From: a virus
Length of the DNA: 5,437 bases
Virus record (IMG/VR): IMGVR_UViG_3300045988_000371
Coordinates: 1-5,437 of that record
Reading direction: 5' to 3' (one strand)
Below the pieces are notes generated by a model, which saw nothing but the letters and a program-made list of their open reading frames with translations, was not told where the DNA came from and ran no database searches. The position numbers and the translations under genes are program-made. Shown here piece after piece: positions 1 to 5,437 of the stretch (position 1 is its first letter; each line of letters opens with the position of its first letter).

Positions 1-55
1 CCGCCGAAGCCTTCTTTGTCTTTTTTGCCGCTTCCGGCTGCTGTGCTTTTGCCGC
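1..55. repeat. Terminal direct repeat, copy 1 (circular-contig overlap)
   Basis: ccgccgaagccttctttgtcttttttgccgcttccggctgctgtgcttttgccgc matches 5383-5437 base for base (checked by eye). It lies inside the VP2 coding sequence, so it is redundancy of the linear representation and not a biological repeat. Confidence 0.95.
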
Positions 56-834: not shown

Positions 835-2451
835 TTAGTGATGGTCGATGAGGCCGGGAATGCTGTACACCGGCATACACCGCGTTGTTTTGTTCATAAA
901 GTAGAAGTCTGCAATAAAGTCCGGCTGAGACTGTACCGCAAGAGTTCGCTTCATTTCGGTGTCGGTCTGCTCCATCCATGCCGTACTCAGCGTGGGTAGT
1001 GCGTCGTAATCTTGTGCATAGTGCCATGCATCGAGGCTCTGTGCTGCGTTGCTTCGGAAAAGCCCAGTTACTTTGCTGGGCTTGTACCTGTAGTCGGCCC
1101 ATGCCTCTTGGTAGCCGAACGCCTCTTCATCTGCTGTGTTGCCCTGTGCATAGATTTCTTTGTTGAGAATGGCTTGTTCGCCGATGTTTGCCAGTACCGG
1201 CCAGTAGTAATCATACCGGCCTTTGCGGCTCCACATGCGCTCGATACCCTGCTGATAGGTCTGGTCGGTACGGACGACCGCCAGACCCATAATCAAACCA
1301 TGCTCAGTAAAGGACTTGGTAAACATAGGTTTGTTCATGGTGGTTACACTCAACGCCGCTGTGTTGCCCAGCGGACTCGTGCCGTCAGTCGAAGAGGTCT
1401 GGATAACCTGAGACACGTTGATAGGCAGTCTGTAGCCGCCCAGATACTCCGGAATCTGCATACGAGAGTCAGGAGAGATAACCCCGAAGTGCTCGCGCAG
1501 CACCTCGCGGTATCTCGTGCCGCCTCGTGCATCTTTTTCGAGCAGCTTCTGAATCTGGAATGCCTGACGTAACTGGTTGATGGTTGCTGCGGTGACGTTG
1601 CCGAGGTCTGCGTACAGGAATGCGTTTTGGCTTTCGTCCTGTACTCGTGTGCTGCCGTTCGGGAACTTTATGTCCGGTGCGTTTATGTAAAAATCCGACA
1701 CCCTTACATTTCCTCCGTCAACGACTCGTAGGGAGTATTCGATGTTTTCCCCATCTGCGACGTTTTTGCCGACGATCGGCGCGTTTCCGGTCAGCGGAAT
1801 CGTGATTGGCTCGCCTTTCTGAGGCTCCGGTAAAGCTCCGGTGTAGTAGTCAAACACCTTCGCTGCTTTGAGAGGCTTTGCCAACGTGATAGCACTGTCG
1901 TTGGTAGCGCTGCCATCGTTTTTGCCGGTCGTGGTCGCATCCGTCACTTCTACAAGCGTCGGCTGCGTGACGTTCTGGTTCCTGAACCATTCGTTGTAGA
2001 TGAGACCATAGGCTCGGCCGGGCAGAGCGCTCACGCTGATGCCCTCGACTTTGGTAGGCAGCCCCAGATAGTCTGCTAGCGTACCTTCCGCCCATCCGCC
2101 GGTCGGTGCCGTCACCTGCGGCACACTGTACTCCGTTTTAGGTGTCCATGCTGTTTCCTTGTTCTCGCCCATGAACTCCTTCCAATGTTCCCAGAGCAAG
2201 CGGTTAGGCACGAAGAAAAAGTAGAAGTCGCAGTAGGCATTGTCCATCACCGGGAAGATGGGTGTCGCCATTCGCATGACACAGGCAACGTCGATTTGGT
2301 GCGTATCGCCCGGTAACACCTCATCCAGATAGATTGGGATGAGGTCGCCCGTGTTGAAGGTCGTTTTGTTGTCGCTGTTGCGCTGGAATCGGCTGCGGCT
2401 TACTCCGACCTGCGGATTCTGTGCAAAGTTGTATTCACTGTTGCGGTTCAC
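835..2451 (-). CDS. VP1: Major capsid protein VP1 (Microviridae F-type capsid), 538 aa, GTG start
   Basis: This is a long ORF carrying N-terminal blocks that I recognise from gokushovirus VP1 proteins: SRSRFQRNSDNKTTFNTGDLIPIYLDEVLPGDTH and RMATPIFPVMDN...YFFFVPNRLLW. A GTG at 2451-2449 is the only start that keeps these blocks. An in-frame TGA lies 5 codons upstream, and the first in-frame ATG is codon 59. GAGGTG lies 6 nt upstream. Confidence 0.93.
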   Translation of the reverse strand: MNRNSEYNFAQNPQVGVSRSRFQRNSDNKTTFNTGDLIPIYLDEVLPGDTHQIDVACVMRMATPIFPVMDNAYCDFYFFFVPNRLLWEHWKEFMGENKETAWTPKTEYSVPQVTAPTGGWAEGTLADYLGLPTKVEGISVSALPGRAYGLIYNEWFRNQNVTQPTLVEVTDATTTGKNDGSATNDSAITLAKPLKAAKVFDYYTGALPEPQKGEPITIPLTGNAPIVGKNVADGENIEYSLRVVDGGNVRVSDFYINAPDIKFPNGSTRVQDESQNAFLYADLGNVTAATINQLRQAFQIQKLLEKDARGGTRYREVLREHFGVISPDSRMQIPEYLGGYRLPINVSQVIQTSSTDGTSPLGNTAALSVTTMNKPMFTKSFTEHGLIMGLAVVRTDQTYQQGIERMWSRKGRYDYYWPVLANIGEQAILNKEIYAQGNTADEEAFGYQEAWADYRYKPSKVTGLFRSNAAQSLDAWHYAQDYDALPTLSTAWMEQTDTEMKRTLAVQSQPDFIADFYFMNKTTRCMPVYSIPGLIDHH

Positions 2452-3913: not shown

Positions 3914-3960
3914 ATTATACCATACTTTTTCTATTTTGTCAATAGTTTTTTGAAACTTTG
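3914..3960 (-). promoter_or_regulatory. Consensus sigma70/sigmaA-type promoter with extended -10 and an A-rich UP-like element
   Basis: The minus strand reads CAAAGTTTCAAAAAACTA-TTGACA-(17 nt)-TATAAT. The -35 TTGACA is at 3942-3937 and the -10 TATAAT at 3919-3914, preceded by TGG (extended -10, TGn). An A6 tract sits just upstream of the -35. The predicted transcription start is near 3907, giving a ~19-nt leader to the ATG at 3888. Confidence 0.8.
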
Positions 3961-4015
3961 CCGTCAGCTGCTGCCCCTCTGCTCCTTTATTCTGGAACGC
4001 GTAAGCGCTTGCTGT

Positions 4016-4034
4016 GCGGAGCTACGGCGGAGCT
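4016..4034. repeat. Direct repeat GCGGAGCT x2, spaced 11 bp start to start
   Basis: gcggagct occurs at 4016-4023 and 4027-4034, separated by acg. This lies in a GC-rich noncoding patch upstream of the promoter. The 8-mer GCTGTGCG also recurs at 4011-4018 and 4059-4066. Confidence 0.6.
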
Positions 4035-4069
4035 CAGCTAAATCAATTTTCCTTTCTCGCTGTGCGAGT

Positions 4070-4096
4070 TTTCAACACTTTCAACACTTTCAACAG
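4070..4096. repeat. Three tandem 9-bp iterons: TTTCAACAC / TTTCAACAC / TTTCAACAG
   Basis: Read directly from the sequence: 4070-4078, 4079-4087 and 4088-4096. The region is noncoding. Confidence 0.9.
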
Positions 4097-4097
4097 G

Positions 4098-4106
4098 TTT
4101 TCCACA
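4098..4106 (+). promoter_or_regulatory. DnaA-box-like 9-mer TTTTCCACA (fits the relaxed consensus TTWTNCACA)
   Basis: The sequence abuts the tandem iterons. The match to the relaxed DnaA-box consensus was judged by eye. Confidence 0.45.
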
Positions 4107-4112
4107 AAAAGT

Positions 4113-4132
4113 TGCACAAATGGTTTTGTGCA
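4113..4132. repeat. Inverted repeat TGCACAAA-tggt-TTTGTGCA (8-bp stem, 4-nt loop)
   Basis: 4113-4120 pairs perfectly with 4125-4132. It lies between the two iteron groups in the noncoding spacer. Confidence 0.7.
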
Positions 4133-4143
4133 TATTGCTACAC

Positions 4144-4274
4144 TTTCAACAATTCAACAAGTTATCCACAAAGTTATCAACATCAAAATTGACCAAAAAA
4201 TATCGTTCCAAGGATAAAAATTCATAGTATTCAACATTTTAACACTCTCTACTACTACGACTGCAACAAGTTAT
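4144..4274. repeat. Dispersed additional iteron copies (TTCAACA core and variants) plus an 11-mer repeat CAACAAGTTAT x2
   Basis: TTTCAACAA is at 4144-4152, TTCAACAA at 4153-4160 and TTCAACA at 4230-4236. Variants are TTTTAACAC at 4237-4245 and GCAACAA at 4263-4269. CAACAAGTTAT occurs at 4155-4165 and 4264-4274. Confidence 0.75.
4161..4182 (+). promoter_or_regulatory. Pair of DnaA-box motifs 12 bp apart: perfect TTATCCACA and near-consensus TTATCAACA
   Basis: The sequence GTTATCCACAAAGTTATCAACA contains TTATCCACA at 4162-4170, which equals the canonical DnaA R-box. TTATCAACA at 4174-4182 differs at one position. Confidence 0.55.
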
Positions 4275-4287
4275 ATATAATAGGCTG

Positions 4288-4335
4288 AAATAAACAGTGG
4301 GCCTAATCCTCTTCTTGATAGGATTAGGCCCACTG
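4288..4335 (-). terminator. Strong rho-independent terminator immediately after VP4
   Basis: The minus strand reads CAGTGGGCCTAATCC-(11-nt loop)-GGATTAGGCCCACTG followed by TTTATTT. This is a 15-bp perfect stem (4295-4309 pairing with 4321-4335). It begins 3 nt after the VP4 stop codon (TAG, 4341-4339). Confidence 0.8.
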
Positions 4336-4338
4336 ACA

Positions 4339-5361
4339 CTATAATAGCCCTCTGGCTTTTCTAAACCTCTGCCGTTTTGTCTCTTCTTCTACCTTTGCTT
4401 CCTGTTCGATGGTCAGCCCTGTATTGCTCATTTTGAGTTTTAGTGCATTGATTGCCCTCTCTTGTCTCTTGCGCTTTGTCTCCCATAGCTTTTTTGGCTG
4501 CTCACTCTCATACTTTTTATCAAAGTACCTCGGTATCGGCCTTTTTTTACCGTTGAAGTATAGCCCATCATCTGCGTACATCTGTTCTTTATGGCTCGTG
4601 TAGTAGTCATAGCCTAGACCCGGATTTCTTGACATACAACAGTATGGCGGTGTTAAACCTAACTCCCTATACCTTTTGTTGTCGTTTCCGTATGTCTTTT
4701 TGGTTACATACCCTGCTACATAAGCCATCGTTTCCGGTGATGCTTCTGCGATGATGACGTTGCCCATGCCCCATATCTTGTTTATCTCTTCGCTTTCGAA
4801 GTACGGATTATCACCCCTTTTTTTCTTTAGGTCTGGTATCTCCAAACCATAATAAATGCCGTGATGATGTGGTCTTCCCGTGTTTTCGCCGTATTCTCCG
4901 CAGTAAAAATATCTCAGGTCTAAGCCCCATTTATCGGACGTTTCTTGTTTTTTCCTCAGCCTTTTGTTAAAACGTACCATGTCCTCTTGTAGGAGAATTT
5001 GCACAACTTCCGGTGCGTCTCCGGTCGTCCACTGATGCACTGCACCTCTTATGATTTCGCCTGTTTCTCTTACCATGCCTGGCACATACTCTTGATTCCA
5101 TGTCAGCGTCAAAAACCATACTGGCGTCAGTGTTTTTGACTCCATTAGCATTCTTGTCTCCCAGTCTTGCCGTTGTCTGAGTCTGCACCCGAGACATTTG
5201 CCACATGGCAGCAGCATCACGTCTGTGCGGTACGCGAGACTCTCATATGTTGCTGTTGGATTGTGTGCTCTTTCGCGGTATGTTTCCAGAGTCATGATTG
5301 ACCCTGTTATGTTGTGGTCATTTGGATTGTATACTCTGATGAGTGGTCTTGCGCAGCTCAC
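4339..5361 (-). CDS. VP4: Rolling-circle replication initiation protein VP4 (HUH-type; phiX174 A-protein family), 340 aa, GTG start
   Basis: The motifs are all present: N-terminal xSCxxPL, LPCGKCLGCR, FLTLTW (motif I, 5098-5115), FNKRLRK, RYFYCGEYGENTGRPHHHGIYY (histidine motif, HHH at 4861-4869), MAYVAGYVTKK (two-tyrosine motif Y-x-x-x-Y, 4696-4722) and CMSRNPGLG. The GTG at 5361-5359 is preceded by AAGGAGG (5377-5371) at 9-nt spacing and overlaps the VP2 TGA. Confidence 0.93.
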   Translation of the reverse strand: MSCARPLIRVYNPNDHNITGSIMTLETYRERAHNPTATYESLAYRTDVMLLPCGKCLGCRLRQRQDWETRMLMESKTLTPVWFLTLTWNQEYVPGMVRETGEIIRGAVHQWTTGDAPEVVQILLQEDMVRFNKRLRKKQETSDKWGLDLRYFYCGEYGENTGRPHHHGIYYGLEIPDLKKKRGDNPYFESEEINKIWGMGNVIIAEASPETMAYVAGYVTKKTYGNDNKRYRELGLTPPYCCMSRNPGLGYDYYTSHKEQMYADDGLYFNGKKRPIPRYFDKKYESEQPKKLWETKRKRQERAINALKLKMSNTGLTIEQEAKVEEETKRQRFRKARGLL

Positions 5362-5437
5362 TTAAATTTGCCTCCTTTGCTGCCGCCGAAGCCTTCTTTG
5401 TCTTTTTTGCCGCTTCCGGCTGCTGTGCTTTTGCCGC
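5358..5437 (-). CDS. VP2: VP2 C-terminal end (5383-5437 duplicates 1-55; the unique part is 5358-5382, ending in TGA at 5360-5358)
   Basis: The VP2 frame continues across the junction (5382 is divisible by 3) as ...GKKDKEGFGGSKGGKFK followed by stop. The full protein is join(791..1,5382..5358), 271 aa. The tail is Gly/Ser/Lys-rich and basic. Confidence 0.85.
   Translation of the reverse strand, partial: GKSTAAGSGKKDKEGFGGSKGGKFK
5383..5437. repeat. Terminal direct repeat, copy 2 (circular-contig overlap)
   Basis: Identical to 1-55. The 55-nt length is typical of a k-mer overlap left by an assembler on a circular molecule. Confidence 0.95.

Follow-up and report, generated by a model that had tools for sequence, protein, structure and literature searches.

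[quoted passage not shown] Iteron-type theta origins of plasmids and of phage P1 combine Rep-binding iterons of 17-22 bp with DnaA boxes and an AT-rich region, whereas double-strand origins of rolling-circle plasmids and CRESS-DNA viruses carry a nick site in a hairpin loop beside Rep-binding repeats. Microviruses are the textbook case of initiator-only rolling-circle replication. The viral-strand origin of phiX174 is a stretch of 30 nt inside gene A (CAACTTG^ATATTAATAACACTATAGACCAC), and rolling-circle microviruses such as phiX174 are not known to need DnaA. Moreover, Kirchberger et al. report that microviruses rarely if ever exchange genes with their hosts and that Gram-positive hosts are barely documented (PMC9239249). 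In the literature searched, no paper linked Microviridae with DnaA boxes, trios or a defined gokushovirus origin.

In this study, we show that the non-coding spacer of a gut gokushovirus holds a look-alike of a bacterial chromosome origin, placed next to a conserved hairpin which probably is the phage's own nick site. This suggests that the phage recruits the host initiator DnaA, although DnaA binding is inferred here from sequence alone. The stretch analysed (the window, 5437 nt) is a complete circular genome of 5382 nt with a 55-nt terminal overlap (1-55 = 5383-5437). All genes lie on the - strand, namely VP4, the HUH rolling-circle replication initiator (5361..4339; PF23343, E = 3.8e-14; phrog_942, E = 2.4e-104), several small ORFs, VP5, VP3, VP1 (2451..835; Phage_F, E = 9e-173) and VP2, which runs across the junction. 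Close relatives come from human, pig, dog and monkey faeces. The only long non-coding stretch, 3916-4338, lies between the VP4 stop codon, which abuts the hairpin described below, and a sigma-70-type promoter, TTGACA-17-TATAAT with an extended TG (3942-3914, - strand; 12 of 12 consensus positions), which drives the small ORFs and the VP5-VP3-VP1-VP2 genes.

Architecture of the spacer

An initial annotation of this spacer had described a field of TTCAACA iterons interleaved with DnaA boxes in an AT-rich context. This observation was confirmed, and every feature it listed is present, a few coordinates being off by one base. TTCAACA occurs at 4071, 4080, 4089, 4145 (given as 4144), 4153 and 4230, always on the + strand, and the only other copy in the window is at 2352 on the - strand. 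Tandem Repeats Finder reports 4070-4095, period 9, with 2.9 copies of TTTCAACAC. As the third copy ends in G, the 9-mers are not the three perfect copies that had been claimed. Positions 4141-4200 hold 17 G+C, as had been counted. Shuffling tests, which had been proposed as a check, showed that the enrichment holds under local composition. In dinucleotide shuffles of 3943-4338, TTCAACA is seen 6 times against a mean of 0.18 (0/2000), TTWTNMACA 4 times against 0.22 (0/2000), TYMACA 10 times against 1.55 (0/2000) and exact TTWTNCACA twice against 0.10 (12/2000). Chance or low complexity was rejected by local as well as whole-window shuffles. In total, twelve box-like sites lie in 4069-4244, eleven of them on the + strand, at a density about 11 times that of the rest of the genome.

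Next to the promoter, 3943-4066 is a GC-richer segment (51.6% GC) with short dyads which is replaced by other variants in relatives. It may be a single-strand origin, but its ssDNA fold is not exceptional, 3943-4068 folding no better than shuffles (z = -1.06). The first distal box array (4069-4106, + strand) consists of four head-to-tail boxes, TTTTCAACA, CTTTCAACA, CTTTCAACA and TTTTCCACA, the last at 4098-4106. It is followed by an 8-bp inverted repeat, TGCACAAA / TTTGTGCA (4113-4120 / 4125-4132), each half of which is box-like (the - strand reads ATATGCACA at 4127-4135). The second distal array (4143-4182, + strand) holds CTTTCAACA, AATTCAACA, the perfect consensus box TTATCCACA at 4162-4170 and TTATCAACA at 4174-4182. 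An AT-rich spacer (4183-4227; 26.7% GC) conserved in type-A relatives (ATATCGTTCCAAGGATAAAAATTCAT) separates the distal field from the proximal element. As ssDNA, the field is predicted to be unstructured except for two hairpins, as expected for duplex binding sites, and the inverted repeat is the only hairpin predicted inside the field. This argues against a folded ssDNA origin for the whole field. No known RNA family reached a gathering score in the spacer or in the GC-rich inserts of relatives. Likewise, the only match to a Spo0A 0A box (TGNCGAA) in the window lies at 2515, inside coding sequence, and none lies in the spacer.

The decisive element, which the initial annotation did not single out, lies at 4228-4294. 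It reproduces the layout of the bacterial BUS base for base. On the + strand, a first box, TATTCAACA (4228-4236), directly abuts a second, 8-bp box, TTTTAACA (4237-4244). The 4-bp position that bacteria fill with a GC cluster (4245-4248) is GC-poor here, reading CTCT, and reads CTCC, GCCC or CCCC in relatives. DnaA-trio-like repeats follow at 4249-4269, where the + strand reads CTA CTA CTA CGA CTG CAA CAA (CTACTACTACGACTGCAACAAG), so that the strand DnaA would bind is the - strand, read 3'-GAT GAT GAT...-5'. This is the only (CTA)3 run in the genome, and relatives carry three to six CTA repeats, where a BUS calls for at least three trinucleotide repeats with a central A on the bound strand (preferably 3'-GAT-5'). 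After a G, the AT-rich tract TTATATATAATAGGCTGAAATAAA (4271-4294; beginning TTATATATAATA; 16.7% GC) is the candidate DNA-unwinding element. The composite module occurs once in the genome and arises in at most 2 of 20000 local shuffles and 0 of 1000 whole-genome shuffles.

Conservation and relation to bacterial oriC

Bacterial sequences from the supplement of PMC8287927, converted to the top strand, show the same arrangement. B. subtilis reads TTATCCACA, AATCCACA, GGCC and CTACTATTACTTCTACTA TTTTTTATA (trios beginning CTACTATTAC), Clostridium acetobutylicum reads TTATCAACA, AATCCACA, CTCC and CTACTACTATTACTACTT, and Clostridium botulinum reads TTATTAACA, TATCAACA, AGCC and CTACTACTAC (beginning CTACTAC). 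All of them, like the window, have a distance of 12 bp from first box to trios, within the BUS limit of 16 bp (typically 12-13). The trio of C. difficile is given as CACCTACTACTATTACTACTATGA (PMC7561715). TTTTCAACA and TTATCAACA are listed as species-specific DnaA boxes in the DoriC-based table of PMC8287927, and bacterial oriC modules carry AATTCAACA, GATTCAACA or TTTTCAACA at the position of the first box. TATTCAACA has 1 mismatch to TTTTCAACA, the motif of Oscillospiraceae-type oriC, and lies within the 2 mismatches allowed to a species' own motif on the strand carrying the CTA repeats. Against the strict E. coli consensus TTATCCACA, however, it has 3 mismatches, and the two proximal boxes have 3-4. 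They fit only the clostridial variant.

We searched bacterial genomes with the pattern TCAACANNTYMACANNNNCTACTAYTA, which is built on this layout, is matched by the window and should give about two chance hits in 2 x 596 Gb. It hit at least 120 bacterial genomes, mostly Clostridia (Clostridium, Oscillospiraceae, Ruminococcus, Lachnospiraceae and Selenomonas). Of the 120 hits examined, 117 lie within 700 nt of dnaA or dnaN and 92 lie between the two, and Pfam confirmed DnaA and the beta clamp in eight loci. Oscillospiraceae oriC regions are themselves built from TTTCAAC(A) repeats and end in TTTTCAACA TTTCAACA GCCC CTACTACTA. Phage relatives read TTTTCAACT TTTCCACA GCCC CTACTACTACGGCTAC and match bacterial origins over 31-34 nt at 97%. 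Extended homology which might name the host was not found among these 120 loci, where only the 31-36-nt module matched.

The field is present, unannotated, in 44 GenBank gokushovirus records and in no plasmid record, and seven records matched the window only here, at 81-92% identity. All 43 relatives examined keep the module in the same order and orientation relative to the hairpin, including the close relative KT264799, which has ORFs in place of most of the distal field. No other gokushovirus clade among 80 diverse genomes has the module, so it is an accessory of this clade and not a general requirement. The distal field, in contrast, is swapped between phages independently of the VP4 lineage. 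With PV067914, KT264788 and KT264789 it is about 91% identical, although VP4 is about 66% identical in DNA and 49% in protein, whereas with MG945135 and KT264798, whose VP4 genes are 80-94% identical at the nucleotide level, it is only about 70% identical. Among 36 relatives classified, field type A (as in the window), type B and A/B hybrids occur with every VP4 group, while the hairpin stem next to VP4 follows the VP4 group. The field is therefore a module that recombines freely and does not co-evolve with the phage initiator, which argues for a host factor rather than VP4. Comparing box and inter-box conservation within type-A fields did not discriminate, as the whole field is too uniformly conserved.

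The interpretation in the initial annotation was thus supported only in part. An origin-like architecture of a chromosomal kind, with DnaA boxes and an AT-rich tract conserved in relatives, is supported. Two interleaved motif classes are not supported, because TTCAACA and CCACA forms (CAAC and CCAC) replace each other at the same aligned sites in relatives, and TTTTCAACA and TTATCAACA are themselves oriC boxes of many Clostridia. Iterons and DnaA boxes are one motif class, TTWTN(C/A)ACA, the DnaA-box variant used in oriC of many Clostridia. Neither a plasmid Rep nor a VP4-binding array, the latter of which had been offered as an option, is supported. The hairpin that had been taken as the operon terminator is discussed below.

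The conserved hairpin and its orientation

The hairpin at 4295-4335 (+ strand; 16-nt arms at 4295-4310 and 4320-4335, 9-nt loop at 4311-4319) belongs to a near-universal gokushovirus element, found in about 60 of 83 genomes including Chp2. Its stem sequence varies, with compensatory changes at 13 of 15 pairs (88 cells against 36 in shuffles, 0/500; slid controls are far lower). CTTGAT in the loop and TGAYA just after the stem are invariant, CTTGAT in 31 diverse hairpins. In the window, the + strand loop (TCTTCTTGATAGG) carries CTTGATA at 4314-4320, and TGACAC, which is conserved immediately 3' of the stem, lies at 4334-4339. The cut in phiX174 (J02482) is annotated at 4305/4306, and in the window, as in typical gokushoviruses, GAC lies at +18 to +20 from the equivalent G^A, as in the 'key' part of the phiX174 origin. 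By this homology we read the hairpin as the probable VP4 nick site, the cut being predicted between G4317 and A4318 on the + strand. A scan for the terminator consensus (a GC-rich stem, a loop of 3-8 nt and a T-run) did not call the hairpin, whose loop is 9 nt and whose tail on the - strand is TTTATTTCAG. On that strand it may still terminate VP4 transcription, and a dual role is possible.

An origin of the phiX174 type lies on the strand that is both packaged and coding. The motif is on the coding strand in 55 other gokushoviruses, including Chp2, but on the strand opposite to all genes in the window and its clade, in the PV067914 clade and in one further genome, L127. These three groups have strongly A-rich synonymous sites on the coding strand (+0.41 to +0.76, against a median of -0.52 in the other class). 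The genes of the 120 bacterial origin loci have a median of -0.08 and a maximum of +0.26, so the bias is not host codon usage. This fits packaging of the non-coding strand. However, 2 of the 55 genomes with a coding-strand hairpin (L096 and L108) also reach this range, at +0.59, and independent lineages are few, so that the skew is suggestive but not decisive and packaging of the non-coding strand remains a hypothesis.

A candidate DnaA-dependent origin and its relation to known systems

We consider, with moderate confidence, that the spacer is the replication-origin region of this phage, that most of it imitates a host chromosomal origin and that a DnaA-dependent origin-opening module is fused to the rolling-circle origin. 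Ten or so distal boxes of the clostridial TTTTCAACA / TTATCCACA type precede the module, and the hairpin follows it. In this view, host DnaA-ATP would occupy the boxes on the double-stranded replicative form, oligomerise from the proximal pair onto the - strand trios and melt 4271-4294. Opening would start or boost replication of the replicative form, by letting the freed + strand, which carries the hairpin 24 nt away, fold for VP4 nicking, by giving the host helicase loaders an entry site, or both. The distal field would act as an auxiliary DnaA reservoir or looping platform, as distal boxes do in B. subtilis oriC (incC; PMC6669920). What the analysis itself establishes is the sequence architecture, its conservation, its identity in layout with bacterial oriC modules, its independence from the VP4 lineage, and the covariation and phiX-like geometry of the hairpin, whereas DnaA binding, strand separation, nicking by VP4 and the replication step that benefits are inferred. 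The fixed order of boxes, trios, AT-rich tract and hairpin in all relatives fits the model. Yet in about half of the relatives a GC-rich insert of 60-200 nt separates the tract from the hairpin, and direct coupling of melting to nicking therefore cannot be obligatory. The CTCT cluster, the presence of only three perfect trios and the absence of most of the distal field in KT264799 also weigh against the model, as do the mismatches of the proximal boxes to the E. coli consensus, the restriction of the module to this clade and the fact that rolling-circle microviruses such as phiX174 are not known to need DnaA.

If correct, this would be the first sign that a microvirus recruits the host's master initiator. 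It would tie phage replication to the host cell cycle or growth state and offer a route to plasmid-like persistence in gut anaerobes. The module gives a sequence-based host clue (Clostridia / Bacillota) for an abundant gut phage clade with no cultured host, and offers a minimal natural box-and-trio module for origin-opening biochemistry. The hairpin, inverted in this clade, makes the strand polarity of these virions directly testable. A more far-reaching and rather unlikely possibility, which the data do not rule out, is that this clade has fused a host-type oriC unwinding module to an inverted VP4 origin, that DnaA coats the trios of the coding strand and opens the duplex, that VP4 then nicks CTTG^ATA on the freed non-coding strand, and that the virion therefore packages the antisense strand. 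This would make it a DnaA-dependent, negative-sense microvirus whose replicative form might also persist as an oriC-type minichromosome.

Among the alternatives, a DnaA sink or sensor survives best, though it is doubtful. The cluster might titrate host DnaA, as datA and DnaA-box clusters do, or let DnaA regulate the phage promoter, shutting down or sensing host replication without opening phage DNA. Indeed, about 12 mostly same-strand boxes lie in 180 nt of a multicopy replicative form, a strong promoter lies 130 nt from the field, and the number and arrangement of distal boxes vary between relatives. But titration or promoter control needs neither trios, nor the exact 12-bp spacing, nor an AT-rich tract, and yet these are the invariant part, kept in 43 of 43 relatives. 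Moreover, the module lies about 300 nt from the promoter and has a fixed orientation towards the hairpin. Less likely still is a complementary-strand origin, in which the 4113-4132 hairpin would form a double-stranded box-like site on incoming ssDNA where DnaA assembles a primosome of the ABC type to prime second-strand synthesis. The inverted repeat has box-like halves, type-B fields carry an equivalent repeat (TTTTCAACAG-TT-TGTGGAAAA), and DnaA-box hairpins reportedly can prime ssDNA in E. coli (Masai and Arai). However, most boxes are direct repeats predicted to stay single-stranded in ssDNA, where DnaA domain IV cannot read them, the stem is only 8 bp, and the module has the layout of a duplex-opening device. 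Iterons for VP4 or a small phage protein, as in rolling-circle plasmids, CRESS viruses or iteron plasmids, are improbable. The repeats do lie near the hairpin and next to the rep gene, and several small ORFs matched no Pfam or PHROG function, which does not exclude a DNA-binding protein among them. But the field is uncoupled from the VP4 lineage, the 9-bp repeats are identical to bacterial oriC boxes and embedded in a trio module, no winged-helix Rep or HTH family was detected in the phage ORFs, and no similar plasmid DNA was found. An attachment or recombination site is very unlikely, since despite the 31-34-nt near-identities to oriC and the integration of other microviruses by mimicking dif sites, the phage has no integrase, insertion into oriC would damage the host, none of the 120 bacterial hits was a prophage junction (117 lay beside dnaA or dnaN) and ten extra boxes are not needed for such a site.

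Compared with the described systems, the element passes the sequence criteria of the oriC BUS, provided that the clostridial box variant is used. It shares the tandem 9-bp and 8-bp boxes, the 4-bp cluster, the trios starting 12 bp after the first box and the AT-rich tract, all in the same orientation, with distal same-strand boxes upstream, and its box variants TTTTCAACA / TTATCAACA and trio strings such as CTACTACTACGGCTAC are those found in Clostridia oriC. It differs in sitting in a 5.4-kb ssDNA phage, between VP4 and a phage promoter instead of between dnaA and dnaN, and in being followed by an HUH-nuclease hairpin instead of a helicase-loading region and dnaN. It is thus a look-alike or captured copy and not a chromosomal origin. 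With iteron-type theta origins it shares direct repeats, DnaA boxes and an AT-rich tract next to the initiator gene. The repeats are 9-bp DnaA boxes, however, not 17-22-bp Rep iterons, no iteron-binding Rep (RepA, pi or TrfA class) was found, only an HUH VP4, a trio module is present, and no plasmid in the collection searched carries similar DNA, even in a search for distant matches. As in double-strand origins of rolling-circle plasmids and CRESS-DNA viruses, a hairpin whose loop carries the conserved motif lies adjacent to the rep gene with repeats on its 5' side, but here the repeats match the host initiator's sites and do not co-vary with the Rep. With the phiX174 origin it shares CTTGATA at the predicted cut site, GAC at +18 to +20 and a homologous HUH initiator, whereas its spacer is a 16-bp hairpin stem, the element is intergenic, it lies on the non-coding strand and it is preceded by DnaA boxes.

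The probable origin hairpin in gokushoviruses and its orientation

A near-universal gokushovirus hairpin lies at positions 4295-4339 of the window, at 2898-2957 of Chp2 (L058) and at about 60 loci among L061-L140, our set of diverse gokushovirus genomes. It consists of a variable, covarying stem, an invariant CTTGAT in the loop and TGAYA after the stem, with GAC at +18 to +20 from the phiX174-type cut. This hairpin is probably the long-undefined gokushovirus viral-strand origin. Relative to the genes, the putative origin hairpin is inverted in three groups, namely the window clade, the PV067914 clade and the gokushovirus L127 (4108-4167). This was seen in the window, where all genes are on the - strand and the hairpin motif is on the + strand, in the genomes L001-L006 and in L127. 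All three have strongly A-rich synonymous sites on the coding strand (+0.41 to +0.76), as compared to a median of -0.52 in 55 genomes with a coding-strand hairpin. This predicts that the non-coding strand is packaged. The genomes L096 and L108 are exceptions.

The Chp2 intergenic region (L058, 2810-2900) carries two TGTGCAAAA sites, which fit the relaxed DnaA box on the other strand, and phased A-tracts just 5' of its origin hairpin, but has no trio module. A different gut gokushovirus, L139 (about 4060-4240), has two large palindromes built from TTTCCACA / TGTGGAAA next to its coding-strand origin hairpin.

Variation of the intergenic spacer among relatives

Optional GC-rich inserts of 60-200 nt are found between the AT-rich tract and the hairpin in the relatives L010, L012-L014, L020, L024, L027-L034 and others, and have no counterpart in the window. 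They hold an alternating CG/TG palindrome (ACACGTGCGTGCGTGCGCGTTTCGCGCGTGCGTGCGCGTG) followed by two strong hairpins (GCCCCTACGAGGGGC; GGGGTCTCCCGTGGCGACAGGAGACCCC), and comparison with Rfam gave no match for these inserts. KT264799 (L008), a genome 95.6% identical to the window, has ORFs in place of most of the distal DnaA-box field at about 1150-1590. Yet it keeps the proximal box pair, the trios, the AT tract and the hairpin. Between the promoter and the box field (window 3960-4066), many relatives such as L011, L023 and L044 share a GC-rich dyad (GTCATGCGGTAGGCGCGGTGCGCCGTGCGAAGAGCATGAC), whereas the window and the relatives L015 and L021 carry another variant. This segment may be a single-strand origin.

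Genome ends, possible host signals and comparison with bacterial origins

The terminal 55 nt of the window (1-55 and 5383-5437) are identical, so that the window is a complete circular genome of 5382 nt in which VP2 spans the junction. At 5362-5382, a strong Shine-Dalgarno sequence (AAAGGAGG) precedes VP4 and, together with the TTGACA/TATAAT promoter, fits a Bacillota-type host. Concerning bacterial origins, the dnaA-dnaN spacers of Oscillospiraceae MAGs (L180, 5850-6270; L201, 4430-4700) are made almost entirely of TTTCAAC(A) repeats, and in that lineage TTTTCAACA, not TTATCCACA, seems to be the working DnaA box.
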